Below, in pieces: positions 1 through 41,285 of a stretch of 64,000 nt of DNA (the first letter of the stretch is position 1; every line of letters begins with the position of its first letter). The notes under the pieces are model-generated. The model saw only the letters and a program-made list of their open reading frames with translations, made no database searches and was not told the DNA's origin. This stretch comes from Escherichia coli. Lineage in GTDB: Bacteria; Pseudomonadota; Gammaproteobacteria; Enterobacterales; Enterobacteriaceae. The position numbers were made by a program, and so were the translations under genes. The stretch lies in assembly GCF_041886205.1 (NCBI RefSeq), contig NZ_CP169029.1. One strand, given 5' to 3'.

Positions 1-3000
1 CCACCGTCAGGCCGCACGATGCCAGCCAGCGGCGGCTTTCCTCACTCACCCGGTCAGCCAGGATTTCACTTTCCAGCCGGTCGAGCATCTGCACCAGCAC
101 CGGCGGGAACACCACACTGCCACCGTCTTCGCCGCCGGACTGCTGAAGGGTATCCGCCAGGCTGCGGCGCTGCGTTTTCGCCTGCTCACCGGTGGCGGTT
201 TCAACCCTGATGAGTGGCGTGAAGCTCCCCGGCTGATAAATCGTCTGGATGCGGGTCCTGTCGTTCTGTATCGTGGTCAGCCGGTCGCCGTCCCAGCCGT
301 ACCAGGTCACTTGCGGTTTCCGTGACAGCGACATCCAGCCCGTCAGGTCCCGTTCACGCCGCCACACCCGTTTTGCCACCCTGCGGCCCAGCGGGTCGTA
401 AAGATAGCGACTTTCGACCAGCGGCTCTGCATATTGTGTCCGCGTGTAGTGCACCAGCCGGTGCTGACTGTCGTAATGGTACCGGTGGGTGCGCTCATCA
501 TCCGTGCGGATAACCCCTTCCGGGATGAGGTCGGTTTTCTCCGTCAGCCTGCCGTGACGGTCATACCGGTAAAGATAGTGCGCGTCACGGGCGATACGGT
601 TATCCGGCCACATGCTGAGGGTGCTGTCCGGGTGCAGCTCCGGGTCGGGCAGGCGGTTACCTGCCGGGTCTGTGGCATACGGGATGCGGATATCCAGATT
701 CGCTGCGGTGGTGTGAACGCTGGTCAGCCTGCCGGTGGTGCTGTAGCTGTAACTCCGGGTCTGGCGCGGGCTGCTGATGCGGATGAGTTCGCCGTTGTCG
801 TTCCAGGTGTAATCGCGGTCATACAGCAGGCTGTTCAGGTGCTGGCTCTGTAACTGCCCGGCAGGGGTGTAAGCGGTGGTGAGTTCATTAACGGCCGAAG
901 CTGCGCAGCGTTTCCCGGTGCAGGCGGTCGCGGGTGTACTCCACCAGCGGTGTGTCGCCGAGTTTCATGCCTGCCAGGTAACCGCTGCCGTAGGTCAGCC
1001 ATTCCACGGCGGGCAGGCTGTCCGGTATACAGCGGTTCGCCAGCCCCTGCGCGTTGTACGCATGTCTGGTCTCATGCTGCCAGAGCAGTGCTTCCGTCTG
1101 CGGGTGATGCACCGTCTGACGTTCACCGGTCAGGCGGCCTTTATCATCATACCCGTAGTGCACCGTCACCCGGTGCCCTTCGCTGATATGGCTGATGTCT
1201 GTCAGCCAGCCGCGTGTCGTCATACTGCCACCGCTCTGCCGGTTTCACCCTTCACGGTGCGGTGCGTGAGGCGGTCTGCTTCGTCATAGTGCCAGTGGGT
1301 GACCAGCCCCTCATCCTCACTGCTGGATGAGTTTGCCGGTCAGGTCGTGGTGATAACGCTGTGTGCGGCCGTCAAAGCCGGTTTCCTGTATCGAGCCGGT
1401 CAAGCACATCGTAACGGAAGGTGGTGTGGCTGCCGTTTTCACTGGTCAGGCGGATGACCCGTCCGGCAGCATCGTATTCCATACTGCGCGTCAAGCCCGC
1501 CCTGCGTGGTACAGACGGCCTTTCCCGCGCGCATCGTACTGTGTCCCGTTTCTGCTGCCGTCCGGGGCAATAACGGCGGTCAGGTCACCGGCGGCGTTGT
1601 ATTCATACCGCGTTTCATGGCCCTGCGTGTCTTTCACCGAGCAGTTAACTGTCCACGGCTGTCGTATGCGCGGTACTGGCTCATGCCCTTCCTCGCGGTG
1701 CACCGCCGTCATCTGACCGAAACGGTCATGGTCATAGCGGGTCGTGGTAACCGGAACAGTCAGTGAAGGTCAGCAACTGACCGTAACGGCTCCACGTCAT
1801 GGTTTTCCGGTACTGCCCGTCGCATCCGTCCGTTGTCGCAGGGAAGCTCACTGTGCGCGGATTATCATAACGGTAGCGGGTGATATCGCCGTCAGGGGCG
1901 AGTCTCCTGAATCAGACGTCCGTATTCATCATATTCCCGGCGCATTTCCAGCCCGTCCTGGCCCGGTAGCTGACGTTAACTGGTTGTGGTCGTTATAGTG
2001 AAACGCCGATGCCCTGCCATCCGGCGTGGTGATGCGCGTGATGAGCGCCGCGACACCACATCCGGGCTGTACTCTGTCTGTCCGGCCTGCGGCATCCGTC
2101 TGTGCCTTAAGCCTGCCCACCGCATCAAACTCGACTCTGCGTGACGCTGCCGTCCGCGTGTTCCTTTTTCACCACCCGCTTCAGCCCGGCTTCGCCCTGC
2201 GTGTGCAGCACTTCACGGCGGTTCAGGCTGTCGGTGATGGTGATGCGGTCCTTCTCATACTGATAGCGTGTAGCTCCAGAGCCTGCCGGGTTGAGCTGCT
2301 TCGTCACCCGCCCGGTCACTCGTCGTACCGGTAGCGGATTTCCGGCCGGCCCGCGTAACGGTGCGCCACCATCCGGCCCCGGTGTTGCATCATCGTAAGT
2401 GAAAGCTGCGCACCTGCGTTCCGCTGCGGTCATACACCGCCGCGCAGTTCGCCGCGCTGGCCGTCCAGCGTGTAGCGCGCCAGCGGCGCGGCAGGCTGAA
2501 TTCTCCGGGTATGCCGGGTCGTGCGTCAGCCACACCGCCGACAAGACGGATGCCGTTGTCCGGGCCGTATTCGGTGTACCCGGGCAGTGTGTCGAGGAAA
2601 AGCGGACGGTTCCGAGACCGGCGGGAAGATAAAGAGTGCGCGCTGCTCGGGCTTGTCCTGCCCGCTGCGCCTGCGTGGTCAGCACCAGCCGGAAGTGACG
2701 CCCGGCACCGTCCGTCACGCCGGTGATTTCGCCGCCGAATGTCACCCGCCGGCCTCGCGGTGGAACGTCAGCGTCCGCCCGAAGCGGTCCGCCAGCCCGG
2801 TCAGCACCCGGTACGGCGGCAGCGCGCGCAGGCAGCACCTCGTCCGCTTCCGGCACCCGCTCACGACCAGCCGAGCAGCCACCACGGCCCCTGCAGCGCT
2901 GTTCGTCGCCAGATAACGATGCGGACTTAAGCGGATATCTTCCGGCAGCGCCTGCCAGAGTGCGCCTAGCCGTGTGACCGTTCATCCAGCTCCGCCACGC

Positions 3001-3441
3001 CGCCGCGCACCAGCCACAGTGACTCGCTGCGGCTGTAGCCGTCCTCGCCGGGAAACAGCGTGCTCAAAGTGACAGGCTCCTGCCGCCGTTGTCAGCTGAG
3101 TATCAGTGCGTCATCGCGCAGCTGTAAGCGGATATCCGCAGGCGCTTTCAGCCGGGGCCGAGGCTCCCCACCGGCGCGGGCGTTCTGGTCCGGTAGCTGC
3201 TGTAGGTGCGGGAGAGGATGAACGGCAGCGGGCGCGGGCAGGGCGATGTCGGTCTCGCCGGGCAGGCACCTTCGCACCGAGCAGCGGATTGACCGGATGG
3301 CCGGACGTCACCCCGCCGGACACGCCGAACAGGCCACGCCGGTGGGCGCGCCGATGCGCACCCGGCTGCCGAACCCTCGGACAATGCCGCGGCCGCCTTG
3401 CGGGTCATGTCGCCCTGACGCGCCGCCGGTTTTCCGCTCAT
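1..3441 (-). pseudogene. Rhs-family YD-repeat protein, N-terminal and core part only; C-terminal toxin domain lies beyond the window start; reading frame broken many times
   Basis: Minus-strand ORF starting at 3441 begins MSGKPAARQGDMT (typical Rhs N-terminus); downstream fragments carry YD-repeat sequence (e.g. YGYDDKGRLTGE, RYEYNAAGDLTAV, ITTPDGR); fragments lie in different frames. Confidence 0.8.
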
Positions 3442-3479
3442 GAATCAATTCCTCTTTCTGCTTATTAATAATGGCTTGT

Positions 3480-5693
3480 CTGTTACTGCACCAGTACCGT
3501 TTTAACAGGTGCACCCGACCCTAGTACTGCTCGCATATCCGGCGTATCCGGGGGGTGAATCTTTCGGCATCAGGCGTCATCCGGTGCGGGATCGTCGAGG
3601 CTGCCACAGTTCCAGTTAATCAACTGGCGCAGTCACCGTTCACCTGCTCGACTCACCCTGCCAGAGTGAATGTGCGTGCCGTTGAGAAAGATTGCTGCCG
3701 TCCTTCGTCAGCACCAGCCTTGCCTCACCACAGCAGAGCTCCAGATGCCACAGGCGAGATAAACTCGCGGTCTGCCCGTGTGTCAGTCCTTCATTCGTCT
3801 TCTACCACCGGTGAAAGGCGGCGTGATTCCCCACATTGACGTCTGTAGCCCAGCCCGACCCTGAACCAGTGATCCGAAGCAGCCCTGCCTGTGAGGACTG
3901 CAACAGACGCCACCGAGGTGTGGTCGTAATGCCGCCTACCGTCGTCTGGTACGCCCACCGTCAGCGCACGAACGAGTCGCCACCGTTTCCACTCTGAACA
4001 GAACCCACGTTGATGATCTGGTTACCGCCCACCGTCTCCACACTGGTTCATCCCCCACTCGTCTGTATCTGATTAACGCCAATGTTCTGGATCTGGTTAT
4101 TGGTACCGGCGATCGCCTGGTTGTTGCCAATGGTCTCGGCATGGTTGTTTATCACATCCGTGGTGCGGTTATTCAGCACCTCAGGTGTTCATCTGTCTTC
4201 TGCGCGTGGATGTAGACCTGTTCTTTCCCTGTCGCATCGTCAAACTTCAGTTCATTAAACCCGCTGCCCGTATACGTTTTCGAGCGGATGGTCATCTGCG
4301 TCTTCGTTCCGGCAGGCTGCCGGGTGTGCGGTTTTCCTGGTGGTAGGTACGCCCCATAATGATCGGCTGGTCCGGATCGCCGTTGAGGAAGTCCACAATC
4401 ACCTCCTGACCCACACGCGGTATCGCCAGGTGGCCAAAACCGGTGCCTGCCCACGCCTGTGCCACACGGATCCAGCACGAACTGTCTTGGTCTGCCGGGT
4501 TATAACGGTCCCAGTTGAACTTCACCCGCACGCGACCATGTTCGTCGCAGAAGATTTCCTCGCCTGCCGGTCCTGTCACGACAGCGCTCTGCGGGCCGTC
4601 AACCAGCGGTTTCAGCAACGGCTGTGGTCGCCATGTTCTGTCTGCCGGGATCACCGCAAAATGGTTATCCAGCGCCGTCCCCGCTCCCTGCCGTCCTGGC
4701 ACCGCCTGTGGCTGTTCGCCGTGCAGTTCACTTGCCACCACCTGCCATTCCCGGTTCAGGTTCGCCTGCGGATGCCCCGTCAGCACAATTCGCCGTCCCG
4801 GCCATATCTCCGGCGAGCGGCTTGTTCCCCGCGCGGTTTCTGCGTTGTTGCGCCAGCCGTCCATCTGCCAGCGGGCAAAGTTCTGCCCGTGGGCACTCTC
4901 GAAACGTCCGGGGTAGTCATACACTTCATACTGCGTGCGCTGGTAGTCCTGGTGCTGGCCTTCCTGTTCAAAACGTCCGGCCCAGCCGGGTCGCTTAAAG
5001 GTGTAGTCTTTGTGTTCACCACGGAAGAAGGGCGGATTTGTGCGCTGTAGCGGAACTGGCTGATGCAGAGGGTGCTCACCTCGGTACGGGTGTTCGGATT
5101 CCAGGGATTTCAAAAGATTCGGGCAGATAACGCGACTGTGTCGCACAGCACCAGGCTCTGGTCGGTACTTTTGTAAGCATGCTCCTCATAAAAGAAGATG
5201 CCTTCCTCCGCCGCCATCCGGCACAGGAAATCGTAATCAGTCTCACCGTACTGGACACAAAACTCACGGGAAGGATGCGGCTCGCTGAACAGCGGACTCC
5301 ATTCGGTCACCCCGTTTTCCTGCAACATCGTGCCGAGGATGCTTTCGATGTCCTCGTTCTGGAAGATACGGAAGTTCTGGCGCAGACCGGCACGCCACAG
5401 CGGCGGGTGCACCTTCATGCTGTACAGCATCTGGTTTTTGTCGTTCTCCCCCAGTTCAAACCAGGTCACCACACCTTCACCCGGCGCTGTACGTCATCGC
5501 CCTGCCATACCGTCAGGTAGGCCATTTTGTCCAGCACCTGCGCAAATTCAAGGGAGAGAAACTGCTGGCTGACCAGAGAGAGATCGAGGGAAAAAAGCGA
5601 AGAGAGTGACTGGTTCAGATGAAAGGAAACCACCGCAAACGCATCCGGTGGCAGGCCGTCCACTTCCAGTGTGAAACGTAATCCGGTTGACAT
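3480..5693 (-). pseudogene. vgrG: VgrG spike protein (TssI), frameshifted; 3' end approximate
   Basis: Fragments at 5466-5693, 5110-5472, 4292-5146 and 4173-4478 (minus) read MSTGLRFTLEVDGLPPDAF..., ...GRTYHQENRTPGS..., MTIRSKTYTGSGFNELKFDDATGKEQVYIHAQK, matching VgrG gp27/gp5 modules; frames differ between fragments. Confidence 0.8.
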
Positions 5694-5850
5694 AGCAACC
5701 TCTGGGGTTAGGAAAAACAGACAGTTCGCTGTTAAAGCGGCTGTGACAGTACAGTGTTACGCTTGCGTTCAGGCACGCTACCGCCGAGTTTTCCGGCAGT
5801 CGCCATCTCCCTTGCTAGTACCCTAACTGACAACCTTTTTTTTATGGTGT

Positions 5851-5890
5851 AATACAAAAACAGCATCCGGCCTGATAGCCGGATGCTGTT
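5851..5890 (-). terminator. Rho-independent terminator immediately downstream of hcp, upstream of vgrG
   Basis: Inverted repeat cagcatccggc / gccggatgctg (5861-5888) with 6 nt loop, followed on the minus strand by a T-run (A-run 5851-5860 on plus). Confidence 0.55.
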
Positions 5891-5898
5891 GGCTTAAC

Positions 5899-6425
5899 TT
5901 ATGCTTCCAGCGGTGCGCGCCAGTCGTCGGCACCGGAGGTGCCAGATTTGACGTGTTCCCATTCAATTTTCGCGGTAGGCCAGTGAAACTTCGAGCAACT
6001 GGGTGAACTCGCGTTTCGCCGGGTCCTGGCAATGCGGCATATGCAGTTCTCATATCGCCAATCGTCGAATCAGTCAGGCGGGGAGCGAGATAGTGCTCCT
6101 GTTTGCCTTCCACAGAGGTACGCCACCAGTGAAGTTCAGCGGTTGGGCAGCATTTCGCCGGAGGCCAGTGCGTTGTACATCAGCGGAACCGCTTTGTTCA
6201 GCGCCACGGTAAAAATGAAAGGCTTGTGAGCGCACGCTGACCCGCAGGCTGACCGGACTGAGGATCGGTCCGCACAGATAACGTTATGCAGGAATTCCTG
6301 CACCAGCATCTCCGTCTTCGTGCCCCTGCACATAGATGTTGCCGACAGAATCAGCGGTAAATGCACCTGCAGTAATATTTCCCTGGGTCTGACCAGTGAT
6401 GGAAGATATAACACGGTGTTGGCAT
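5899..6425 (-). pseudogene. hcp: Hcp (TssD) tube protein, frameshifted
   Basis: Minus-strand translation from 6425 begins MPTPCY... and ends ...PLEA*; internal fragments ...EMLVQEFLHNV...HKPFIFTVALNKAVPLMYNALASGEML and VEGKQEHY...LTDSTIGDMRT match the Hcp family; length 527 nt is not a multiple of 3. Confidence 0.8.
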
Positions 6426-7134
6426 TTGTAAACTCCTTGTTAACGTGGTTAATTACTACTTACAATGACCTGCCGTTAATCCCAGACAGGCAGATGCAGC
6501 TCACTTCACGGAACCGCATCATTTTTCAGTATTTTTTACATACAAACCGAGCTAGAATTTACGGTTGTCGTAAAAACTATTTTTAAAATCATTACATAAC
6601 TCTCATTCAGCAAATAACTTAATAATATATATCTGGATAGCCATACCCAACTGTTCAAAGTCCGTATTGCCTCCATAAAATGGCCAACAGCGCGAACCAA
6701 CTGAAAATAAATATTGTATTTATCCTTTCTGAATTATCATTTTGATAATTTTTGAAGATATTCCTTAAAAATACCCACTTAATCAATCACAGTAAACACA
6801 TGTATAAATAAGCAATCATTAGATTAGCTCATGTTTAATGAAATTATTATATACTTCAATAAGTTACATAAAAAATCTATATTTAAATTATTGCCATAAT
6901 ACACCTGACGCGAATTGCACAGGTTCACACAATCTATTTAACGCTTGCAGAATACCCCTCTTTACCATCGATAAAAAGTCCTTTTCTTATTTATTTTGAA
7001 GCGTAAAATGCGGGGTGATGAAGGAGCTGGTGATTTTATTTTCACCGCCATTAGGGCGGCATTGCCGATATTTTTTTGCGGTACAAATATGCCGTGTTCA
7101 TGGCCTGTACGAGATAACATGACGGATTACTTTT
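6426..7134. promoter_or_regulatory. AT-rich divergent intergenic region between hcp-vgrG-rhs (minus) and tssB operon (plus); presumed promoters
   Basis: ~700 bp non-coding, visibly AT-rich compared with flanking genes; sits between divergently oriented T6SS genes; no specific promoter elements verified. Confidence 0.35.
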
Positions 7135-7646
7135 ATGAGCAAAAAATTTGAAGGCAGCGTCGCGCCTCGCGAGCGTATTAACATATCGTATGTCCCAAAA
7201 ACAGATGGCCAGACGGCTGAAGCGGAACTTCCGCTTAACATGCTCGTTGTCGGCGATACCGGAAATACGCAGGAAAACATCCCCACTGGATGAACGTCAG
7301 GCAGTTTCCGTTAACAAGCACAATTTCGGTGCAGTGATGGCTGAAGCAGCCATTGGCCTCAATTTTACTGTCCCCGCCACGCCTGAAGGGAAGCACAACA
7401 GACGATGAACTGAATGTGGCGCTGAATATCAAATCACTGGAAGCTGACTCTTTCACCAGATAGCGTGGCCCGGCAGGTTCCGGGAAGCGAGTAGTAATCG
7501 CTGGAACTGCGTGAAGCACTGACTGCACTGAAGGGGCTCGGCTGGGTAAACCTTCCGGCATTCCGTACCCAGCTCCAGGCATTGCTGGAAAATGAAGAGT
7601 CCCGCGAGCAGTTGCTCAAAGAAATCGGTCTGGTGAGCAATAAATA
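7135..7646 (+). pseudogene. tssB: TssB (VipA) small sheath subunit, frameshifted
   Basis: Translation from ATG 7135: MSKKFEGSVAPRERINISYVPKTDGQTAEAELPLNMLVVGDTGNTQENIP then stop; continues in another frame as LDERQAVSVNKHNFGAVMAEAAIGLNF; TssB-family N-terminal signature. Confidence 0.75.
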
Positions 7647-7958
7647 ACCACCACGATTCCATTAAACAGGGTTATCCAGGACATGACGGCACACAAAAAT
7701 ATCTCCGGGACATACCACCTCTCTGTTGCAGACATTCTGCAGGTGCTTTACCAGGTATGTTTCAGCCCGTCCGTTGAAATCAACCAGGACTGGTGTGGCT
7801 GCGCTGATTACAACACTGGATCGCCGTATCAGTGATCTATTGGATGAGATTATCCATTTTTGTGAGTTTCAGCAGAGCGCGTCGCACTGGCAGCGCGTAC
7901 TTCACTGATGGCGAAAGGCCGGTTCCAGAAACACAGCTAAAACAGAAGGATTTTCAGT

Positions 7959-9461
7959 ATGTCTTTACAGGAAGAGGAACTCTGTTCCCAGTCATGCCGG
8001 GCAGCCTGGAGCAGGCATCGTCGCTGCTTGATCAAATCATGGCACAGACCCGTATTCAGGCCCGGTTCGGAAGGTTATGACGTTGCCCGCCAGGGTGTGA
8101 CAGCCTTTATTGCCAGCATCCTGCAATCCACTGCATCTGCCGAACCGGTCAATAAACTGGCCGTGGACAGCATGATTGCAGATATTGATGAACGCATCAG
8201 CCGCCAGATGGATGTCATCATCCAGGGCGCGCCTGCCTTTCAGCAGGTCGAATCGTTCTGGCGCTCACTGAAAACCATGGTGGATCGCGTTGATTTCCGT
8301 GAAAACATCAAGGTCAACGTGCTTCATGTCACCAAAGCAGGGAACTTCTGGAAGACTTTGAGTTTGCGCCAGAAATTATTCAGTCCGGATTTGATCAAGC
8401 ACGTTTATTCGTCCGGATTCGGACAGTTTGGCGGTGAACCCATCGCTGCCGTGCTGGGCGCTTATGAGTTCAAAAATACCGCGCCTGACATGAGACTGTC
8501 GGCAAGACGCCAGTGCCGTGGGCGCAACGGCGCACGCACCGTTCCTGTCCTCCGTTTCCCCGGCGGAGTTTATGGGGCTGAACTCGTGGACCGAACTGCC
8601 TAATATCAAAGATCTTTATGCCATCTTTGAAGGTCCGGCCTACACCAAATGGCGCGCCCTGGCGTGACTCGGAAGATTCGCGCTGGATTCAGGGCTTACG
8701 GCACCCCGTTCTTCCTGCTTCGCCAGCCCTGGTCACCAGCAGATAACCCTGTTAAGAAGCTTTAACTATCACGAAGATGTCAGCCAGAACCACGAAGATT
8801 ATCTGTGGGGTAATACGGCCTGGATGCTGGCATGCAATATCGCAGACAGTTTTGCCGAATACCGCTGGTGTCCAAACATTATCGGCCCGCAAAGCGGCGG
8901 CGCGGTGAAAGATCTGCCGGTGCATCTGTTCGAAACGATGGGGCAGATTCAGGCCAAAATCCCAACCGAGGTGCTGGTCACCGATCGCCGCGAATTTGAA
9001 CTGGCTGAAGAGGGTTTTATCACCCTGACCATGCGTAAAGACTCTGATAATGCAGCCTTTTTCTCTGCAAACTCGGTACAAAAACCTGAAGCACTTTCCG
9101 GGAAAAGATGCAGAAACCAACTATAAGCTGGGTCTGCAGTCTCCCTGATCTCTTCATCATCAACCGGTTAGCGCACTACATCAAGGTGTTGCAGCGTGAA
9201 CATACTGGGGTCATGGAAAGAAAGGAGCGACTTAGAGAGGGCAGCTCAGACACCCTGGATCCGTCAGTATGTTGCCGACCAGGAAAACCCGCCGGACGGA
9301 CGTGCGCAGCCCGCAAACCTCTGCGCGCAGCCAGAGTTGAGGTTATGGATGTGGAAGGCGAACCCGGCTGGTACCAGGTTGCGCTAAGCGTGAGGCCTCA
9401 TTTTAAATTTATGGGGGCAAATTTTGAGCTTTCCCTGGTCGGCCGGTTAGACAGGGAGTAA
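7959..9461 (+). pseudogene. tssC: TssC (VipB) large sheath subunit, several frameshifts
   Basis: Fragments SLLDQIMAQTRIQ, EGYDVARQGVTAFIASIL, PVNKLAVDSMIADIDERISRQMDVIIQGAPAFQQVESFWRSLK and C-terminal ARVEVMDVEGEPGWYQVALSVRPHFKFMGANFELSLVGRLDRE match TssC; pieces are in three frames. Confidence 0.8.
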
Positions 9462-9466
9462 CACAC

Positions 9467-9893
9467 CATGAGAGTACCGGATCGGGAAAAGAACCACAGG
9501 TTCTCTTTTTTGAGCGTATGGAAGCCTCTTCGGCCAGAAACCGGGCAGGGAGGCAGTATTCATTCGCTCAGGCAATCCATTCGCCAGAACCTGACGAAAC
9601 ATTCTGAGTACCCGGTCCGGTAGTTGCCGGGGTGCGCCTGAGCTGGGCATTGATGAACCGGAAGGGGCTGAAAACTTCCGCGAATCCATGAGTCGGGCCA
9701 TCGAGCAATGTATAGAACGCTATGAACCCCGGATCTCACACGCTGAAGTGCAGGCAGTGGTTTCATCCGCCTCCAGCCCGCTGGATACGGCTGCTTCATA
9801 TTACAGCCTGGGTGACATTTCAGTCTGAAACGCATGAGGTGCTTGAATTTGATATGGCACCGAATGCAGCCAGCATTACCGGGTGGACTGACA
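9467..9893 (+). pseudogene. tssE: TssE baseplate (gp25-like) protein, frameshifted; assignment from position and size
   Basis: ~140-codon gene slot between tssC and tssF starting ATG 9467 (MRVPDREKNHRFSFLSVWKPL...); frame is interrupted; identity based mainly on synteny. Confidence 0.45.
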
Positions 9894-9894
9894 A

Positions 9895-11701: not shown

Positions 11702-11729
11702 CCGTTGTGAACACAGAAAGCCAGGAGAC

Positions 11730-12817: not shown

Positions 12818-12819
12818 TT

Positions 12820-14642: not shown

Positions 14643-14644
14643 TT

Positions 14645-15977: not shown

Positions 15978-15981
15978 GACG

Positions 15982-16742: not shown

Positions 16743-16750
16743 GGACGTTT

Positions 16751-20261: not shown

Positions 20262-20265
20262 AAAT

Positions 20266-21679
20266 ATGGCAATGGACTTACGCGATCCGAATGTCTGGAT
20301 ATCGCACCTGCTGGAAAACCTGCCGGAAGAGAAACTGGCATCGGCGCTGAAAGATGACAACCCGAACTGGGAGTATATCGACGGCGAAATCGTCAAGCTG
20401 GGATCGCTGGCCCACAGTCAACTGGATATCCCGGAACTCCAGCGCCGGGGGCTGGTCATTCTGGCTTCGGAGAGTAAGGATTTTCGTCTGCTGGCGCATC
20501 TGCTGAGAACCCTGCAACACGCCGGTGATCCTCACTCCCGCATTGCGCCTGCTGGCGCTGTATGTGGAGCATTACTGGGCGGTGGCTGCGCCGCAGAATA
20601 TGGCGCATAAAAAACGCTTTGCCAGCCAGGTCATTAAACGCTTTGAAACAGGTATTGAAGTTTTTTCACAGAACGCCGCCACAGCGCAGCGCGATGCGCT
20701 GTCAGGGGAACTGGCAAAACTGGCGCAATGCTGGCAGTCACATAACGCCCCGGAACTGGCACAGGCTACTGATGATCTTTTTGCCCCGTACCAGCGTGCG
20801 TTTAATCGTGCGGCACCGGTTCCTGTCCCCACTCCGGCGGCCTCCGGTAGTTCACCACAGACCACCGCCACGTCTGAAAGCGGCGTGACGCAACCCAGTG
20901 CTCCGGCTCCCCAAATCGTCATCGACAGTCACGACGACAAAGCCTGGCGCGACACGCTGTTAAAAGTGGCGGCCATTTTATGTGAACGCCAGCCGGATTC
21001 ACCGCAGGGCTACCGTCTGCGCCGCCATGCGCTTTGGCAGAACATCACCAGTACGCCCCAGGCGGAAAGCGATGGCCGTACTCCACTGGCTGCGGTCTCC
21101 GCCGATATGGTGGCAGATTACCATGCTCAGCTCGGTAGTGCCGATATGGCGCTGTGGCAGCAGGTGGAGAAAAGCGTACTGCTGGCTCCTTACTGGCTGG
21201 ATGGTCACTGCCTTTCTGCACAGACGGCGCTGCGTCTGGGTTACAAACAGGTGGCAGACGCCATCCGCGATGAGGTCATCCGCTTCCTTGAGCGTCTGCC
21301 CCAGCTTACCGGGCTGCTGTTTAATGACCACACACCGTTTATCAGTGAGCAGACGAAACAATGGCTGGCAGCTTCGCCCGACGCCAAAGTTGCACCGGTT
21401 GCGCAAATCGGTGAGGAATCGAAGGCAGCCAGAGCCTGTTTTGCTGAGCAGGGTCTGGAGGCGGCGCTGCGATATCTGGACATGCTACCCGAAGGCGATC
21501 CCCGCGATCAGTTTCACCGCCAGTACCTTGCCGCACAGTTGACGGAAGAGGCGGGGCTGGTACAGCTTGCGCAGCAGCAGTACCGGATGTTGTTCAGGAT
21601 GGGATTGCAGATGATGGTGGCAGACTGGGAGCCGTCCCTGCTTGAGCAGCTAGAACAAAAATTCACGGCAGAACAATAA
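20266..21679 (+). pseudogene. tssA: TssA (ImpA N-terminal domain) protein, one apparent frameshift near 20.53 kb
   Basis: N-terminal fragment MAMDLRDPNVWISHLLENLPEEKLASAL...SESKDFRLLAHLL (ImpA_N-like) in one frame, remainder (384 aa ORF 20525-21679) in another. Confidence 0.7.
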
Positions 21680-21697
21680 AAGAGAACAGGAGTTTTT

Positions 21698-24600
21698 GTG
21701 TTCAGATTACCAACACCCCGACTACTCAGCGGACTCAAATCAGCCCTGCGACCGGCGATGCCCCGGTTTAAAGTCTCTGCTTTCTGGCTGCTGATACTGG
21801 CGTGGATTTTTCTGCTGGTGTGGATCTGGTGGAAAGGCCCGACGTGGACGCTGTATGAAGAACAGTGGCTCTAAACCACTGGCGAACCGCTGGCTGGCAA
21901 CGGCGGCGTGGGGGATTATTGCCCTGATGTGGCTTACCGTCCGGGTGATGAAGCGCCTGCAACAGCTTGAAAAACAGCAAAAACAACAGCGCGAGGAAGC
22001 CGTTCGATCCGCTCAGTGTGGAACTGAACGCCCAGCAGCGTTACCTCGACCGCTGGCTGCTGCGCCTGCAACGCCATCTCGACAACCGCCGTTTCCTGTG
22101 GCAATTGCCGTGGTATATGGTCATCGGCCCGGCGGGCAGTGGCAAAACGACACTGCTGCGCGAGGGGTTTCCGTCAGACATTATTTATGCCCCGGAGGGC
22201 TCGCGCGGCGCAGAACAACGCCTGTACCTTACGCCCCATGTCGGTAAACAGGCGGTGATCTTTGATATCGACGGCACACTCTGCGCTCCCGCTGATGCGG
22301 ATATCCTGCATCGCCGTCTGTGGGAACATACCCTCGGCTGGCTGAAGGAAAAGCGCGCGCGCCAGCCCGCTGAACGGGATTATTCTGACACTCGATTTAC
22401 CCGATCTGCTGACCGCAGACAAGCGCCGCCGTGAGTATCTGCTACAGACGCTGCGCAGCCGCTTGCAGGATATACGCCAGCATCTTCACTGCCAGCTACC
22501 GGTTTACGTGGTACTGACCCGGCTTGATTTATTGCAGGGTTTTGCCGCCCTGTTCCAGTCCCTGAACAGACAGGATCGTGATGCGATTCTGGGTGTCACG
22601 TTCACCCGCCGTGCCCATGAAAATGATGACTGGCGAACAGAGTTGAATGCTTTCTGGCAGACATGGGTGGATCGAATGAATCTGGCGTTGCCGGATCTGA
22701 TGGTCGCTCAGACTCACACCCGCGCGTCTTTATTCAGTTTTTCCCGCCAGATGCAGGGAAGCCGTGAACCCCTGGTGTCACTGCTTGAAGGTCTGCTTGA
22801 CGGCGAAAATATGAACGTGATGCTGCGTGGTGTCTATCTCACCTCGTCACTGCAACGCGGCCAGATGGATGACATCTTTACCCAGTCCGCCGCCCGCCAG
22901 TACCGGCTGGGCAATAACCCACTGGCGTCCTGGCCCCTGGTGGACACCGCGCCTTATTTCACCCGCAGCCTGTTCCCGCAGGCATTACTCGCAGAGCCTA
23001 ATCTGGCAACGGAGAGCCGTGACTGGCTGATGCGTTCCCGTCGCCGCCTGACGGTTTTCTCTGCCACAGGCGGCGTGGCGGCACTGCTGCTCATCACCGG
23101 CTGGCATCACTATCACAACGGTAACTATCAGTCCGGCATCACCGTGCTTAAGCAGGCCAAAGCCTTTATGGACGTGCCGCCTCCGCAGGGGAAAGACGAC
23201 TACGGCAACCTGCAACTGCCGCTGCTGAACCCGGTACGCGATGCCACACTGGCCTATGGCGACTGGGGCGACCGCAGCCGTCTGGCCGATATGGGACTGT
23301 ACCAGGGACGACGTATCGGGCCTTATGTGGAACAGACCTATCTGCAACTACTAGAGCAGCGTTACCTGCCCTCGCTGTTTAACGGGCTGGTCAAAGCGAT
23401 GAACGCCGCGCCGCCGGAGAGTGAGGAAAAACTCGCCGTGCTGCGCGTGATGCGAATGCTGGAGGACAAAAGCGGACGCAATAATGAGGTGGTGAAGCAG
23501 TATATGGCAAAACGCTGGAGCGAAAAAGTTCCACGGCCAGCGTGATATCCAGGCACAACTGATGTCCCATCTTGACTACGCGCTGGCTCATACTGACTGG
23601 CATGCAGAGCGTCAGGCGGGCGACGGTGACGCCATCAGCCGCTGGATGCCATATGACAAGCCCGTGGTATCAGCACAGAAAGAACTGAGCAAACTGCCTG
23701 TCTACCAGCGGGTTTACCAGAGCCTGAAAACGCGGGCGCTGGGCGTTCTTACCTGCTGACCTCAATCTGCGTGACCAGGTAGGGCCAACCTTTGACCAGG
23801 TCTTTACATCTGCCGATGACAACAAACTGGTTGTTCCACAGTTTCTTACCCGTTACGGCCTGCAAAGCTATTTTGTAAAACAGCGCGATGAACTGGTTGA
23901 ACTGACGGCAATGGATTCCTGGGTACTCAACCTCACCCGCAGTGTGAAATACAGTGACGCCGACCGCGCGGAAATCCAGCGCCAGTTGACCGAGCAGTAT
24001 ATCAGCGACTACACCGCTACCTGGCGAGCCGGGATGTGACAATCTGAATATCCGCAATTTTGAGTCCATTGGACAACTGACCGGGGCGCTGGAGCAGGTT
24101 ATCAGCGGCGACCAGCCTTTGCAGCGGGCGCTGACTGTGTTGCGTGACAACACACAGCCAGGCGTCTTTTCTGAAAAACTTTCTGCCAAAGAACGGGATG
24201 AGGCTCTGGCAGAACCGGACTACCAGTTGCTCACCCGCCTCGGGCATGAATTTGCCCCGGAAAACAGTACTCTGGCAGTACAGAAAGACAAAGAAAGCAC
24301 GATGCAGGCCGTGTATCAGCAACTCACCGAGTTGCACCGCTATCTGCTGGCAATTCAGAACGCGCCTGTACCAGGGAAATCGGCGCTGAAAGCCGTGCAG
24401 TTGCGGCTTGATCAGAACAGCAGCGATCCGATATTCGCCACCCGCCAGATGGCAAAGACACTGCCTGCTCCGCTCAACCGCTGGGTTGGCAGACTGGCTG
24501 ACCAGGCCTGGCATGTGGTGATGGTGGAGGCCGTTCACTATATGGAAGTGGACTGGCGCGACAGCGTGGTGAAACCGTTTAACGAGCAACTGGCAAATAA

Positions 24601-25228
24601 CTATCCGTTTAATCCGCGTTCTGCACAGGATGCCTCACTGGATGCCTTCGAACGCTTCTTTAAACCGGATGGCATACTGGATACCTTCTACCAGCAGAAC
24701 CTGAAGCTGTTTATCGACAATGACCTGAGTCTGGAGGATGGCGATAACAGCGTCATTATTCGCGAAGATATTATTGCGCAACTGAAAACCGCGCAGAAAA
24801 TCCGTGACATCTTCTTCAGTAAACAGAACGGTCTGGGAACATCCTTTGCCGTGGAAACGGTATCGCTCTCCGGCAACAAACGCCGCAGTGTACTGAACCT
24901 TGACGGCCAGTTAGTCGATTACAGCCAGGGGCGCAACTATACCGCCCATCTGGTCTGGCCTAACAATATGCGCGAAGGCAACGAAAGCAAACTGACGCTC
25001 ATCGGCACCAGCGGCAACGCGCCGCGCAGTATCAGCTTCAGCGGGCCGTGGGCGCAGTTCCGCCTTTTCGGGGCCGGACAACTGACCGGAGTTCAGGATG
25101 GCAACGTTACCGTGCGCTTTAGCGTGGACGCTGGCGCGATGACCTACCGTGTGCATACCGACACTGAGGATAACCCATTCAGCGGTGGGTTATTCAGCCA
25201 GTTTGGTCTGTCAGACACACTGTACTGA
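21698..25228 (+). pseudogene. tssM: TssM (IcmF-like) membrane-complex protein, several frameshifts
   Basis: N-terminal transmembrane segments, Walker A motif GPAGSGKTTLL (fragment 21967-22434), ~1170-codon span ending with 369 aa fragment 24119-25228; at least five frame changes. Confidence 0.8.
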
Positions 25229-25238
25229 GGAGGCAGGG

Positions 25239-26593
25239 ATGGATAGTAACGGACTGACACAAACTATCGTTACCGGCAGTGACCCGCGCGGGGCTGCCGG
25301 AATTCAGTGCCATCCGCGAGGAAATAAACAAAGCCAGCCACCCGTCACAGCCTGAGCTGAACTGGAAACTGGTGGAGTCGCTGGCACTGGCGATTTTTAA
25401 AGCCAACGGTGTGGATTTACACACCGCCACCTACTAGACGCTTGCCCGGACACGGACACAGGGACTGGCGGGATTCTGCGAAGGTGCGGAACTGCTGGCG
25501 GCAATGGTAAGCCACGACTGGGATAAGTTCTGGCCGCAGGGCGGCCCGGCGCGTACTGAAACGCCGGACTGGTTTAACTCCCGAACCGGCAATATTCTGC
25601 GTCAGCAAATCTCCTTTGCGGAATCCGACCTACCACTGATCTACCGCACAGAGCGGGCATTGCAGCTTATCTGCGATAAGCTCCAGCAGGTGGAACTGAA
25701 GCGCGTTCCGCGCGTGGAGAATCTGCTCTATATTTATGCAGAACACGCGTAAACGGCTTGAACCCCAGACTGAAGAGTAACACTGAGAACGCCGCACAGA
25801 CCACGGTCAGAACGCTGATTTATGCCCCGGAAACACAGGCATCTTCCACACCAGAAGCGGTAGTGCCTCCCCTGCCCGGCCTGCCTGAGATGAAAGTGGA
25901 AGTGCGCAGTCTGACAGAGAATCCCCCACAGGCCAGTGTGATAAAGCAAGGCAGTACGGTAAGAGGGTTTATCGCAGGGATCGCCTGTTCAGTGGCTGTC
26001 GCCTCAGCATTGTGGTGGTGGCAGGTCTATCCGGTGCAGCAGCAACTGTTACAGGTTAACGACACCGCTCAGGGCGCAGCAACGGTGTGGATGGCCTCAC
26101 CTGAACTCGAAAACTATGAGCGCAGGCTGCAACAACTTCTTGATACCTCCCGGTACAGCCGCTGGAAACCGGGATGCAGATGATGCGTGTTGCCGACAGT
26201 CGCTGGCCGGAAAGCCTGCAACAGCAACAGGCCTCGACACAATGGAATGAGGCACTCAAAACCCGCGCACAGAGTAGCCCGCAGTTGCGTGGCTGGTTGC
26301 AGACCCGCCAGGACTTACATGCTTTTGCAGATCTAGTGATGCAGCGCGAGAAAGAGGGACTAACCCTTTCCTATATCAAAAATGTCATCTGGCAGGCGGA
26401 GCGGGGACTGGGGCAGGAAACACCCGTTGAGTCTCTGTTGACGCAGTACCAGGATGCCCGTGCGCAGAAGCAGAATACAGATGCGCTGGAAAAACAAATT
26501 AATGAGCGACTCGAAGGCGTGTTAAGCCGCTGGCTGCTGCTGAAGAATAACGTCATGCCAGAGGCGGCAACCGGTACCACGGCCGAAAAATAA
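25239..26593 (+). pseudogene. Second ImpA_N-domain T6SS accessory protein (VasL/TagA-like), frameshifted
   Basis: Alternate-frame translation near 25.3 kb gives LPEFSAIREEINKASHPSQPELNWKLVESLALAIFKANGVDLHTATY (ImpA_N signature); followed by a hydrophobic segment (FIAGIACSVAVASALWWW) and a C-terminal region; fragments in three frames. Confidence 0.5.
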
Positions 26594-26616
26594 TTATTTA
26601 ATTAAAGGAGATTATC

Positions 26617-27099
26617 ATGGCAAATATAAGTTATTTATCTTTGAGTGGAGAGACACAAGGGCTGATTTCAGCAGGTTGCTCAACGCTTGATTCTGTCGGA
26701 AACAAAGCGCAGCCAGAACATAAAGATCGAGATCATGGTTTATGCGTTAATGCATTCCATCTCAAGAAGTCAAAATGTCAATCATCATGAATTAATTATC
26801 ACCAAACCGGTTGATAAATCCTCACCATTGCTGGCAAAAGCACTTAGTGACAATGAAAAAATGGCAATATGTGAATTTATACTCTACCGAACCAGTAAAG
26901 CGGGTATTTACCAGCCTTATTATAAAATAAATCTGTCAAAAGCCCGAATATCAAGTATTGATTTTGTCACACCGCATGCTGTCCTGGAAAAGAACTGGAA
27001 CCACAGGAGAGAATTGCCTTTATTTATGAAGATATTTCCTGGGAGCATACGTTAGCCGGTACGAATGCAATGAGTAAATGGCAGGATCGTGTACAGTAA
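26617..27099 (+). pseudogene. hcp: Second Hcp (TssD) copy, two apparent frameshifts
   Basis: Strong RBS (aaggag) then MANISYLSLSGETQGLISAGCSTLDSVGNKAQPEH; continues in other frames as ...SISRSQNVNHHELIITKPVDKSSPLLAKALSDNEKMAICEFILYRTSKAG... and ...RIAFIYEDISWEHTLAGTNAMSKWQDRVQ*, all matching Hcp. Confidence 0.8.
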
Positions 27100-27142
27100 C
27101 TTACTGTAATAACATAATAAATTACTATTGCGGAGAGATAAA

Positions 27143-28039
27143 ATGGCTGGTTTAAGGAATAACAACAACACACAGAATGCACAGTGGGCTGATTATGTGG
27201 GTGACATTCTTCGGGGGGCTCAGCCGATAAACCAGCTAGTACCTCAGCACCCTTATCTTAACGACGTCCCACTCATTGATGAGTTAAGGCATCAGAACAC
27301 TCATCATGTTATTCTCTTGACACTTGATGTTGCAAAAAAAATACTCAGCCCAATAACATCATTTGATTACATTCATTTTATCACTACACATCCTTCAGGT
27401 ATAAAAGATACACTCGCCTGGTTAGTTAACGCGGGTAAATTAATGACTGAGTTTGATGACAATGGGAAAATTATATTTAACCTTAATGCCTTAAAGTATA
27501 CAAAAGCAAGTTACTTTGAAATACTTGGAGAGAAATATATAAAAATCACAACATCCAGCCCCTGGCTTTTAGAAAAGCTCGGTAAATATATTTTCTCTTC
27601 ACGAGCGCCTCAAGTTCTGGAACTCGCTATTGGCTGGCGAGGAGCTTTATCTGAATCAATAAAAGGAGTTAAGTTCTGTATCTGGTTTTCAGTAGCCTGG
27701 AGAACCATAGAATTTATTATGAGTTCAGAGCGAGATCTGGTTAATTTTCTTGGCGATTTTTCAATGGATGTGGCCAAAGCAGTTATAGCCGGTGGTGTTG
27801 CAACCGCTATTGGAAGCCTGGCTTCTTTTGCCTGTGTTAGCTTTGGCTTTCCAGTAATTCTTGTCGGAGGAGCAATTTTACTGACAGGGATAGTGTGTAC
27901 AGTTGTTTTAAATGAAATCGATGCTCAATGCCATTTATCAGAAAAATTAAAATATGCAATTAGAGATGGACTAAAACGGCAACAGGAACTTGATAAATGG
28001 AAAAGGGAAAACATGACTCCATTTATGTATGTTCTTTAA
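27143..28039 (+). CDS. Hypothetical protein with C-terminal glycine-zipper transmembrane hairpin; candidate Hcp-linked membrane-targeting effector
   Basis: Intact ORF (frame opens at 27128; ATG 27143 has a better RBS ggagag); AT-rich; C-terminal hydrophobic helices AVIAGGVATAIGSLASFACVSF and FPVILVGGAILLTGIVCTVVL; immediately downstream of hcp2. Confidence 0.6.
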   Translation: MAGLRNNNNTQNAQWADYVGDILRGAQPINQLVPQHPYLNDVPLIDELRHQNTHHVILLTLDVAKKILSPITSFDYIHFITTHPSGIKDTLAWLVNAGKLMTEFDDNGKIIFNLNALKYTKASYFEILGEKYIKITTSSPWLLEKLGKYIFSSRAPQVLELAIGWRGALSESIKGVKFCIWFSVAWRTIEFIMSSERDLVNFLGDFSMDVAKAVIAGGVATAIGSLASFACVSFGFPVILVGGAILLTGIVCTVVLNEIDAQCHLSEKLKYAIRDGLKRQQELDKWKRENMTPFMYVL

Positions 28040-28067
28040 CACTCCACCCGTGATATGAGGATTAACC

Positions 28068-28433
28068 ATGCGTTTACATGTTAAATTAAAAGAGTTTCTT
28101 TCGATGTTTTTTATGGCCATATTATTTTTCCCTGCATTCAATGCTTCTTTGTTTTTTACCGGAGTTAAACCTCTATATTCAATAATAAAATGCTCCACGG
28201 AAATATTTTATGATTGGAGAATGTTGATTCTGTGCTTTGGTTTCATGTCGTTTTCCTTTTTAAATATTCATGTAATTTTACTTACGATAATAAAATCATT
28301 CTTAATCAAAAAAACGAAGGTAGTCAATTTCGCCACAGACATAAACAATACAGCTAACTCTTATATTTTTACTAATAGCTATCGTAATAGCACCTTTAAT
28401 AGCTCCTTTTGTCACAGGATATGTCAATGCTAA
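28068..28433 (+). CDS. Small hypothetical inner-membrane protein (121 aa); candidate immunity protein
   Basis: Intact ORF with RBS (gagga) and two hydrophobic segments (FFMAILFFPAFNASLFF; MLILCFGFMSFSFLNIHVILLTII); directly follows the putative effector gene. Confidence 0.5.
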   Translation: MRLHVKLKEFLSMFFMAILFFPAFNASLFFTGVKPLYSIIKCSTEIFYDWRMLILCFGFMSFSFLNIHVILLTIIKSFLIKKTKVVNFATDINNTANSYIFTNSYRNSTFNSSFCHRICQC

Positions 28434-28703
28434 TTATCACCCCTGCGGTAATAATGCGGGGATTTTCCCAGCGAGCAATCTGATATTAAAAATGGCATGA
28501 AATGTAGTAACTGAATATATTTCTCGCAAGGAAGATTCAGCAGTTAAATAACTAAATATTCTAAAACAAACAGTTTTTAACTCCGGTATTCCATGTCCTT
28601 TCTTGCACTGTCTTTGTCAAGAAAGATTTCTTATGCAAAGAATTTTGTATTATTGCCGCCCAGAGATTCCTGGCGGCAGATAGAATCTATTATTGATAGC
28701 GAG

Positions 28704-29486
28704 TTAACCAAATCTTTTCACCATCGCTTTATAGGTCTTTTGCTTAAGTTGCATGATTTGCTGCTCTGTCATATCAGTCGTACTGGCTTCATTCTTGTCG
28801 GGCAATGGTGGAAGCACTTTATATTCATACTTCACCGGCGACCAGGTACGTAGCCCACTCACCTGTTGCCACATCCACCAGCGTGAAACGTACCAGGTAG
28901 CGCAGGGAGATAGCGTCGGTGAGTTTTTCATTTTTATAGTCGGACCATACTGTTGATTTCAGCGCAGAGTCATATTTTCCTGTCTGCAACGTATCCTGGA
29001 AAACAATAATCGCTTTCTGATGCCCTTTTGCAGCCCACAAAACGCAGTGCCTGCATCCAGTTCATATTCTCAGCACTGGCAACATCCTCGTTCTCATTTT
29101 TATCTTTGTTTTTGTTACAAGTCAGAGGCTTTTGCCTGTCCGGGATACTCAGAAAAGAACGTGGAAACAGTATAATATTTTCGCATCTCCTCCTGCATAA
29201 TGGTTTCCGGTGCGCGGTTGCCGGATTGAACAAGTATTACAGGAGAATTAAGGGGAACGCGGAACTCATCTCCATCAAGCGCAGCTTGAATATCCTCTTC
29301 GGATACGGCCAGAGTGGTTTCATTACCGAATAAATCTTTGTCTGTCAGTTGCTGGGGAGTGTTTTTATTAATATTACTTTGTGTGACTTGAGCTTTTTTC
29401 TTCTTTTCATCAATAGAAGATTCAGAGGCACATCCTGCAAGCAGCGAGAATAACACACATATGCAACAAAGCTTTTTTGAATTCAT
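28704..29486 (-). pseudogene. yafT: Lipoprotein YafT-like gene adjacent to aspV, frameshifted
   Basis: Minus-strand ORF from 29486 begins [21 protein letters not shown] (lipobox); continues in other frames down to 28704 (~261 codons total); position next to tRNA-Asp as for K-12 yafT. Confidence 0.65.
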
Positions 29487-29752: not shown

Positions 29753-29789
29753 ATGCAAAAAAAACCGCAAAATTAAAAATCTTGCGGTT
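29753..29789 (-). terminator. Rho-independent terminator downstream of aspV
   Basis: Inverted repeat aaccgcaa / ttgcggtt (29763-29789) followed on the minus strand by a T-run. Confidence 0.6.

Positions 29790-38371: not shown

Positions 38372-41285
<2,914 letters not shown>

Follow-up and report, generated by a model that had tools for sequence, protein, structure and literature searches.

Natural losses of T6SS-1 in E. coli concern the same aspV locus and gene set as the DNA discussed here, and loss of function is common. One such case is the yafT-ykfM remnant of K-12 type, and in strain PI6 the T6SS-1 genes were lost through large deletions. Natural T6SS loss has also been described in ST410 and ST131 (PMC10711316). 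These losses proceed by multi-kilobase deletions, recombination, and IS insertion, with few frameshifts at most. A different kind of gene breakage is found in the false pseudogenes of long-read assemblies (Homopolish, PMC8011154; Kastor, PMC12007338), where many genes are broken by unshared 1-nt indels, gene order is perfect, identity to intact orthologues is high, and errors remain wherever correction has no input. The usual nanopore case consists of homopolymer deletions spread genome-wide, nanopore errors being known to favour deletions and homopolymers (PMC4719071). In PacBio RS/CLR reads, most errors are indels, which fall at random along the read and are independent of homopolymers (PMC4719071).

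The window analysed here, a stretch of 64,000 nucleotides from E. coli (NZ_CP169029.1), carries a T6SS-1 island (rhs, vgrG, hcp, tssB to tssM, hcp2, yafT) at tRNA-Asp aspV, followed by core genes. The aspV gene (29817-29893, minus strand, ARAGORN) is the insertion site of the island; homology to the closest core genomes begins at 29811, and the core chromosome (29894-64000), which runs from dnaQ to lpxA and includes the rrnH operon, is clean and collinear with strain wlxctx60. All the core T6SS-1 genes (tssA to tssM, hcp, vgrG, clpV) are present in conserved order beside aspV, and the island is collinear with the annotated T6SS-1 cluster at aspV of O103:H2 12009 (NC_013353), every protein of which was recovered by tblastn. 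Both share the order hcp, tssB, C, E, F, G, tagH, tssJ, K, L, clpV, vasI, tssA, tssM, vasL, hcp2, yafT, aspV, with an identity of 99.6% over 12000-28000, errors included. The window differs from O103:H2 12009 in its rhs, which is of the RhsB/C type, in its vgrG, which is nearer to a second vgrG-rhs locus, and in its reading frames, which are broken in the record. Contrary to natural T6SS-1 loss, every gene is kept in order while more than 200 point insertions are scattered among them.

As the record is written, 19 of the 22 genes in the island contain one or more indels that change the frame, according to tblastn of the O103:H2 12009 proteins and a per-gene table: rhs, vgrG, hcp1, tssB, a 75-aa ORF, tssC, E, F, G, K, L, clpV, tssA, tssM, vasL, hcp2, a 304-aa ORF, ykfM, and yafT. 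The unbroken genes are tagH, tssJ, and the 247-aa vasI, the first two because they fall in a clean block. An earlier note on this DNA had correctly listed these three as intact, but it had added two ORFs linked to hcp2, and these are damaged: an insertion at 28035 alters the last 6 codons of the 304-aa ORF, and ykfM carries 4 insertions. Judging from the pattern alone, we consider it very likely that the organism itself does not carry these frameshifts as mutations and that they entered the deposited sequence as technical errors. The changes form a distinct pattern, are private to this record, and do not match natural mutation.

The frameshifts are restricted to the island, and the core genes beyond aspV are intact, as the earlier note had claimed. 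In a composite alignment against the best references, 208 insertions and 26 deletions lie in 888-29155, whereas 29156-64000 holds no insertion and two single-A deletions, both outside genes (Fisher p ~1e-73). The 30 protein genes of the core, including dnaE, are collinear with wlxctx60 with zero indels over 29811-64000, and the core differs from this strain by ~26 substitutions, mostly in rRNA. A sharp border does exist, but it does not coincide with aspV: the last private change is found at ~29150-29160, ~660 bp inside the island, and the lack of any event in these last ~660 bp has a probability of 5e-4 at the local density. The left side has an edge too, since rhs bases 1-887 are clean and the first insertion occurs at 888.

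The indels had been thought to sit at homopolymer runs, and tabulating the frame changes against homopolymer context contradicts this for the insertions. Within 5661-29810, 66 of 113 single-base insertions (58%) have no identical neighbouring base, compared with 57% for a random base at a random site, and there is no enrichment at reference runs of at least 1 (p = 0.78) or at least 3 (7/113 versus 5.5% expected, p = 0.68). The inserted bases are C (36), G (27), A (25), and T (25). Only the deletions, the rarer class, favour runs, with 8 of 16 single-base deletions in runs of at least 4. As to the three junctions previously placed in runs, the one in tssB, assigned to cccc at 7281-7284, is in fact an extra A in AAAA at 7274-7277; the first one in hcp2, assigned to aaa at 26722-26724, is a G inserted at 26729, outside any run; and the second one in hcp2 is indeed a change from AAAAA to AAAA at 26988-26991. 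Homopolymer-length miscalls missed in polishing, as known from 454, Ion Torrent, or nanopore data, would fit the two of these three junctions that lie in A runs, as well as the half of single-base deletions in runs, but they are very unlikely as the general cause: insertions make up 89% of the events without the concentration in runs that such miscalls would leave in 5661-29810, the de novo insertions of GGG at 8225, GTAC at 28846, and AGC at 7442 are not length changes, nanopore sequencing favours deletions (PMC4719071), and the substitutions are unlinked to Dam/Dcm motifs. The artefact reading is supported in outline, whereas its homopolymer form has to be replaced by insertions of random bases at random positions accompanied by substitutions. 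The long homopolymer or short tandem repeat tract that marks the frame switch of a phase-variable contingency locus, usually one per gene, is also missing, since frame changes reach up to 31 per gene and lie mostly outside runs.

The spectrum of the indels likewise departs from natural mutation. Insertions outnumber deletions by 8:1 (binomial p 4e-39), and 164 of the 208 insertions (79%) are 1 nt long. In bacterial pseudogenes, the insertion:deletion ratio is 0.76-0.94 and deletion sizes are long-tailed (PMC6054270), and the indel rate of E. coli depends on homopolymer run length (PMC8510543); decay would be expected to leave deletions at least as numerous as insertions, with long-tailed sizes, and small indels arising from slippage in runs or repeats, none of which is the case in the island. 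Placement is also blind to function: 142 of 149 indels in 5661-29810 have lengths that are not multiples of 3, with no excess of such multiples, and the hcp1-tssB spacer has 12.7 indels per kb versus 13-17 per kb in the adjacent genes.

The indels are, moreover, private to the record. Over 5900-12000, the 109 inserted and 11 deleted bases of the window are missing from all five diverse references compared, and these same references, despite 240 sites of difference among them, have only 0 or 1 private indel each. This 6.1-kb stretch measures 6,101 bp in the window versus 6,001-6,003 bp in the 13 full-length matches listed, which are spread over 2,104 genomes, and its best identity among the matches listed is 96.6%. 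Among ~2,300 genomes, there are no intermediate decay states. Exact searches aimed at the source record, with an error-bearing 39-mer (10208-10246) in genome_contigs and metagenome_contigs and with the proteins of the frameshift-fused TssK ORF and the TssJ variant, gave no match.

Substitutions accompany the insertions, their densities covarying in 500-bp bins (Spearman 0.63, p ~2e-6, or 1.7e-6). Private substitutions amount to ~2% in the hcp1-tssG block (5971-11869) versus ~0.2% in the adjacent blocks, and the core lies ~0.02% from its nearest relative outside the rRNA genes, a distribution at odds with the uniform neutral divergence, compatible with lineage age, of a unit inherited together. 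Changes from AT to GC (261) exceed those from GC to AT (67) by 4:1, and 79% of the substitutions in 5701-29200 are at A:T pairs. Bacterial mutation is biased from GC to AT, so the observed direction is the opposite one. Their spread over the three codon positions (27/22/24 in the hcp1-tssG block versus 18/8/82 in the core) was also considered as a discriminator and set aside as not decisive, the uniformity fitting error and neutral decay alike.

Genuine decay in place, in which an unselected T6SS-1 island would accumulate real small indels and the system would be dead, is in keeping with the frequency of T6SS loss in E. coli (PMC10711316; strain PI6), and the even codon-position spread would suit relaxed constraint (no selection) and error equally well. 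We nevertheless regard it as highly improbable, and its form proposed in the earlier note, decay by slipped-strand indels, is not supported: the events show no association with runs or repeats, are nearly all of 1 nt, favour insertions by 8:1 (compare PMC6054270, PMC8510543), are blocky and private with no intermediates, and come without the large deletions or IS elements of real cases (strain PI6; PMC10711316), none of which is present in the island. Furthermore, neutral divergence would have to differ ten-fold between adjacent blocks and to stand ~100-fold above the nearest-relative distance of the core, with substitutions running in the wrong direction.

The density of indels changes in blocks, from 0 to 27 per kb. 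The first block (1-887, minus strand) is the C-terminal-side part of the rhs core, of RhsB/C type; it is clean, matching RhsB/RhsC cores at 99% identity and without indels, and one frame runs across 2-916. It is followed by the densest block (888-4400, minus strand), with 94 indels in 3.5 kb (27 per kb), comprising what remains of rhs, up to 3441, and, from 3531 on, the C-terminal portion of vgrG. Here, the density climbs from 888 to a peak at 3501-4000, and nearly all events are insertions relative to L004 and L003. The best match for 1-5700 is 85%, and because no close reference exists, some of the differences in the rhs-vgrG part may be natural, divergence and error being not cleanly separable there. 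The next block (4401-5970, minus strand) is low in errors, with 7 indels in 1.6 kb, and covers the N-terminal two thirds of vgrG (ending at 5693) and the start of the hcp1 region.

Error density rises again in the hcp1-tssG block (5971-11869), where 89 indels, almost all insertions and spaced in a Poisson-like manner (CV 1.03), amount to 15 per kb. This block spans hcp1 (5902-6425, minus strand), the intergenic region, tssB (7135-7644), the 75-aa ORF, tssC (7959-9461), tssE (9471-9891), tssF (9895-11772), and the start of tssG; tssB alone has 8 insertions, 7 of them frame-changing. Directly after it comes a clean block (11870-15808, plus strand) with the rest of tssG, tagH (12841-14121), tssJ (14118-14642), and most of tssK. 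Over its 3.9 kb, this block is free of insertions and has 2 single-base deletions, of which one lies in a T run at 12604; the density of the preceding block would predict 59 events and the neighbouring density would predict 9.3 (P = 9e-4). TagH and TssJ are 100% and 98.3% identical to those of O103. A moderate block (15809-19122, plus strand; 16 indels, 4.8 per kb) includes the end of tssK, tssL (15982-16742), and tssH/clpV (16751-19521), which falls into 7 tblastn pieces. The sparse block (19123-28034, plus strand; 13 indels, 1.5 per kb) extends from the intact vasI (19518-20261) through tssA (20266-21679), tssM (21788-25228), vasL (25239-26593), and hcp2 (26617-27099) to the 304-aa ORF (27143-28060); its indels, 6 in tssM, 4 in vasL, 2 in hcp2, and 1 in tssA, are each enough to break a gene. 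The last error block (28035-29155; 11.6 per kb) holds ykfM (28068-28551, plus strand) and yafT (28700-29486, minus strand), with 13 insertions that are all missing from O103 and PI6 and private substitutions that are AT to GC in 9 of 9 cases. The clean end of the island (29156-29816), consisting of the 5' part of yafT and the spacer to aspV, shows a single poly-A length difference at 29756, which is shared with PI6 and is therefore natural.

If the island had decayed for long in an unknown donor before reaching this lineage at aspV, this would account for the sharp border close to a tRNA integration site and for an island type unlike that of the closest relatives. This reading meets the same objections from the spectrum, and the clean blocks, 99.8-100% identical to living O103 islands, cannot be reconciled with long neutral decay across the entire island, whose final 660 bp are clean; we consider this history extremely improbable. 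Just as improbable is a reading in which the insertions are real and stem from a local insertion-biased, slippage-independent mutational process acting on the island alone. A very low-fidelity polymerase during transfer or repair would be an example, and would have to produce non-templated 1-base insertions and AT-to-GC changes over 28 kb yet leave the chromosome untouched a few hundred bases off, a combination to which we give hardly any credence.

The preferred reading, technical error, would operate as follows. The consensus of ~888-29160 would have kept residual read errors, as is typical when a consensus of single-molecule long reads has low depth or is not polished effectively, these errors being single bases of random identity inserted at random sites, with few deletions and with substitutions alongside, while the flanking core was raised to finished quality. 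Blocks of 1 to 9 kb would be expected if stretches rest on differing read numbers or qualities, and genes would seem intact where a block happens to be clean and nowhere else. The platform may be PacBio-CLR-like. This assignment is weak because the AT-to-GC excess, which is not a described feature of PacBio, and the indel:substitution ratio of ~1:1 (~0.6:1 over 888-29200 as a whole) are not those of textbook raw PacBio reads, which have ~15 times more indels than substitutions; the window is also a consensus and not a raw read. The window differs from the usual nanopore case in its random insertions, AT-to-GC excess, block-wise density, and confinement to one 28-kb island.

The confinement itself is likely due to a correction that used closely related genomes or data without the island. 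Polishing against close genomes requires that these carry a homolog of the region (PMC8011154), and the two genomes closest in the core, both of phylogroup A and ~99.98% identical to the window there, have another island, of T6SS-2 type, at aspV. This agrees with the reference-guided polish lacking a template that the earlier note had suggested, even though the clean island blocks do not follow from it. Two features of the island stand apart from the missing-template idea, which leaves them unexplained: the clean blocks at 4401-5970, 11870-15808, and 29156-29816, and the error-ridden rhs core past 888, despite the many close E. coli copies of it.

Alternatively, the errors may be artefacts confined for another reason, namely that the island was present at very low depth, from a minority of cells or a contaminating B1-type strain, and that the assembler threaded it between aspV and the Rhs core repeat. 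Lineage affinity and quality switch together, from a phylogroup A core to an island closest to B1 STEC, the left edge lies inside a multi-copy RhsB/C-type core that is not the rhs usual for the island, and the blocky, ramping error density resembles fluctuating low depth. On the other hand, aspV islands are often swapped among E. coli lineages, which makes the discordance weak evidence, and the island of a minor strain is normally assembled onto a separate contig, so we hold this origin to be possible but rather doubtful.

Under the reading of technical error, what the strain really carries is most likely an ordinary, unbroken T6SS-1 cluster, ~99.8% identical to those of O103/O45/O121 strains, and the T6SS is probably intact in the organism. 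The finding is almost certainly a data-quality problem that provides no evidence of island decay, and has no biological import beyond a well-known, probably intact E. coli cluster. Taken at face value, the record would cause the strain to be scored T6SS-negative with ~19 pseudogenes, and false gene-loss calls of this type would enter pangenome or T6SS-prevalence surveys. It also provides a worked example of how artefact and decay can be distinguished without reads, by homopolymer association against a random model, insertion:deletion ratio, privacy against diverse relatives, intergenic versus genic density, and uniformity of neutral divergence along the unit.

Several other causes were tried and rejected. 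Methylation-linked nanopore errors do not apply, with 2 of 142 substitutions in GATC and 0 in CCWGG, at or below expectation. An adenine-directed, strand-specific process of the diversity-generating-retroelement type makes no insertions, and the strands are symmetric overall (A>G 92 versus T>C 99), a strand skew being confined to the hcp1-tssG block. A polishing reference with a partial island, as in PI6 or the K-12 remnant, is not supported: the segments retained in PI6 (rhs, vgrG, tssJ, part of tssK, and hcp2 to yafT) mismatch the clean blocks, and yafT is error-ridden. The Rhs gene in the aspV island of the closest core genomes, considered as a left anchor, has zero homology to window positions 1-6000. 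Finally, the rhs of the O103 aspV island gives a misleading 20% divergence when used as the reference for 1-3441, whereas an RhsB-type reference shows 1-887 to be clean.

Across its left 29.8 kb, the window is collinear with the T6SS-1 island annotated in E. coli O103:H2 12009, with the gene order rhs, vgrG, hcp, tssB, tssC, tssE, tssF, tssG, tagH, tssJ, tssK, tssL, tssH/clpV, vasI, tssA, tssM, a VasL-domain gene, hcp2, two small ORFs and yafT, followed by the tRNA-Asp gene aspV (29817-29893). The right 34 kb are core chromosome, spanning dnaQ, the rrnH operon, dnaE and lpxA in that order, with a tRNA-Asp gene at 38041-38117; the core is equal in length and 99.9% identical to that of strains wlxctx60 and 6EVA. 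The full island gene complement is in place, with neither an IS nor a large deletion. This T6SS-1 cluster is of a kind already known and is probably intact in the organism.

When O103 proteins were used as tblastn queries, nearly all island genes appeared split over two to seven frames, the intact exceptions being TagH (426/426 residues identical), TssJ and the 247-aa VasI. Indels were counted against the best reference for each segment: 1-3168 was compared with an RhsB-type core (locus L004), 3169-5700 with a second vgrG-rhs locus (L003), 5701-29810 with the O103 island (L001), and the core with wlxctx60. On this basis, 888-29155 holds 208 insertions and 26 deletions, a count that mixes natural divergence and error in the rhs-vgrG part, where the closest reference to 1-5700 reaches only 85%, whereas 29156-64000 holds no insertion and two single-A deletions, both outside genes (Fisher p about 1e-73). 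The confinement of frameshifts to the island, claimed in an earlier note, is therefore real and far past chance, and the core genes beyond aspV are free of them, as had been proposed. A frame-changing indel is present in 19 of the 22 island genes, with 31 such indels in tssF, 19 in tssC, 11 in clpV and 6 in tssM.

The sharp boundary was previously placed at aspV itself; an edge does exist, but it lies about 660 bp short of this gene, the rightmost private change (one absent from the compared genomes) being near 29150-29160. A clean final stretch of this length has a probability of 5e-4 given the local density. Its sole difference, a poly-A length at 29756, is natural, since it is common to strain PI6. 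At the other end, the first 4 kb appeared 20% divergent against the O103 island's own rhs, whereas 1-1000 matches RhsB/RhsC cores at 99%; with a core of this type as reference, 1-887 is free of indels, and insertions begin at 888, their density climbing thereafter. The rhs core of the window is of the RhsB/C type (99% over 1-887, against only 76-80% for the island's usual rhs), and its vgrG is nearer to that of the second vgrG-rhs locus, located by yncH in O103-type genomes. Either this effector end (1-5700) is a mosaic, or an Rhs repeat mediated its joining.

The frameshifts had also been assigned to homopolymer runs, which did not hold. Of the single-base insertions in 5661-29810, 66 of 113 (58%) have no identical neighbouring base, compared with 57% when a random base is put at a random reference site, and these 113 insertions show no enrichment by reference run length (runs of at least 1, p = 0.78; at least 2, p = 0.10; at least 3, p = 0.68). 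The inserted bases are nearly equal in frequency (C36, G27, A25, T25), and several insertions longer than one base, among them GGG at 8225, AGC at 7442 and GTAC at 28846, are clearly non-templated. A preference for runs is restricted to the minority class, the deletions, with 8 of 16 in runs of at least 4. As for the junctions reconstructed by hand, the one in hcp2 at 26988 is AAAAA shortened to AAAA, as described; that in tssB (7135-7644) does involve a homopolymer, but the inserted base lies in the A run at 7274-7277 and not in the nearby cccc; and at the remaining hcp2 junction there is an extra G at 26729, which is not part of a run.

The ratio of insertions to deletions is 8:1, and single-base events make up 79% of the insertions. 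Curated bacterial pseudogenes have insertion:deletion ratios of 0.76-0.94 and long-tailed deletion sizes (PMC6054270), and the observed ratio departs from such values with a binomial p = 4e-39. Spontaneous indel rates in E. coli vary with homopolymer run length (PMC8510543), whereas the insertions of the window are blind to runs. The changes are also private: over 5900-12000, 109 inserted and 11 deleted bases are absent from all five diverse natural islands, which differ among themselves at 240 sites and have 0 or 1 private indels each. The counterpart of this stretch measures 6,001-6,003 bp in the 13 full-length matches listed, spread across the ranking of the 2,104 genomes with a match of this kind, compared with 6,101 bp in the window, whose top identity in any genome is 96.6%.

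The indels are distributed in blocks, with densities per kb of 0 at 1-887, 27 at 888-4400, 4 at 4401-5970, 15 at 5971-11869, 0.5 at 11870-15808, 4.8 at 15809-19122, 1.5 at 19123-28034, 11.6 at 28035-29155 and about 0 beyond 29155. Inside the 5971-11869 block, the 39 nt of 10208-10246 alone hold five insertions. Substitution density tracks insertion density (Spearman 0.63, p = 2e-6), and the hcp1-tssB spacer has the indel density of its adjoining genes. The intact state of tagH and tssJ is due to their position inside the clean 11870-15808 block, and not to selection. Private substitutions amount to about 2% at 5971-11869 and about 0.2% in the adjoining blocks, while divergence of the core from the nearest relative is about 0.02% with the rRNA genes excluded. 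A ten-fold spread of neutral divergence is impossible for one island inherited as a unit, and the island cannot be 100 times older than the last common ancestor of its host chromosome and that relative.

Bacterial mutation bias runs from GC to AT, opposite to the substitutions of the window: over 888-29200, 261 are AT-to-GC and 67 GC-to-AT, and at 28035-29155, where GC is 38%, all nine go from AT to GC. About 79% of the substitutions in 5701-29200 are at A:T pairs. Errors at methylation motifs were excluded, as no association of substitutions with GATC or CCWGG was found. Substitutions in 5701-11900 are strand-asymmetric (plus strand: T>C 34 vs A>G 18, T>G 15 vs A>C 9, C>T 11 vs G>A 1), while those of the other blocks are symmetric; the consensus in 5701-11900 might rest on one-strand reads. 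TssJ (14118-14642) differs from that of O103 at 3 of 174 residues despite its clean block; its exact sequence has no match in a collection of 15 billion proteins, and therefore the clean blocks too may hold a few substitution errors.

Natural decay of this island is known in a different form. PI6 carries a T6SS-1 remnant at aspV (L010, NZ_CP074042, 13658-25151) that retains rhs, vgrG, a tagH fragment, tssJ, part of tssK, and hcp2 through yafT; two large deletions took the hcp1-tagH and tssK-vasL segments, and its rhs has a frameshift. Likewise, T6SS loss in ST410 and ST131 involved deletions plus an IS insertion in tssM (PMC10711316). PI6 thus lost genes by large deletions, whereas the window keeps them all. 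In two RefSeq genomes, tssF of ETEC1731 (L008, NZ_CP122816, 3924-5773) is frameshifted by one private 1-nt deletion and tssC of O157 AR-0429 (L007, NZ_CP044143, 2025-3416) is shortened, both natural-looking; such single defects are the damage scale of real genomes. Genuine slipped-strand decay, one of two readings offered earlier, is at odds with the run-blind, private and blocky changes with their insertion bias and AT-to-GC direction, and we consider it highly improbable. Six features (size and direction, mechanism, privacy, blockiness, clock and substitution direction) speak against natural mutation.

The best explanation of the island frameshifts is, very probably, a technical artefact, in which the deposited record would retain uncorrected read errors across the island. 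PacBio RS errors are indel-dominated, random in position and homopolymer-insensitive, a profile like that of the window; in nanopore reads, deletions and homopolymers dominate (PMC4719071), unlike here. A PacBio-type platform is assigned only tentatively, because neither an indel:substitution ratio near 1:1 nor an excess of AT-to-GC changes is a textbook feature. The case is of low interest overall, its use being as a caution for gene-loss surveys.

Regarding the restriction of errors to the island, wlxctx60 and 6EVA carry at aspV a T6SS-2-type island instead of T6SS-1: a remnant in the former (L002, NZ_AP045833, 10000-16700) and an almost complete cluster in the latter (L011, NZ_CP138428, 1203-20500). 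The T6SS-1 island of the window is closest to B1 STEC strains, which implies either a same-tRNA island swap within a very young lineage or a chimeric assembly. Because both closest core genomes carry a different island, correction via close relatives, or via the data of an island-free relative, would find no template there, a limitation acknowledged for homology-based polishing (PMC8011154). We infer that this may have caused the confinement, although it leaves the clean blocks inside the island unexplained; the earlier idea of polishing without a template is thereby kept in spirit, but its homopolymer-length form is unsupported. Alternatively, the island could have been assembled at low depth from a minor subpopulation or from a B1-type contaminant strain, which we regard as rather unlikely, even though lineage and quality switch together at aspV and the left edge falls inside a multi-copy Rhs core. 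Both are artefacts, with differing expectations for the other accessory regions of the assembly.

Within the core, most differences from wlxctx60 fall in two patches of the rrnH 23S rRNA gene (39551-39561 and 40734-40746), which include a compensating 1-nt insertion and deletion and probably reflect rRNA operon sequence heterogeneity or gene conversion.
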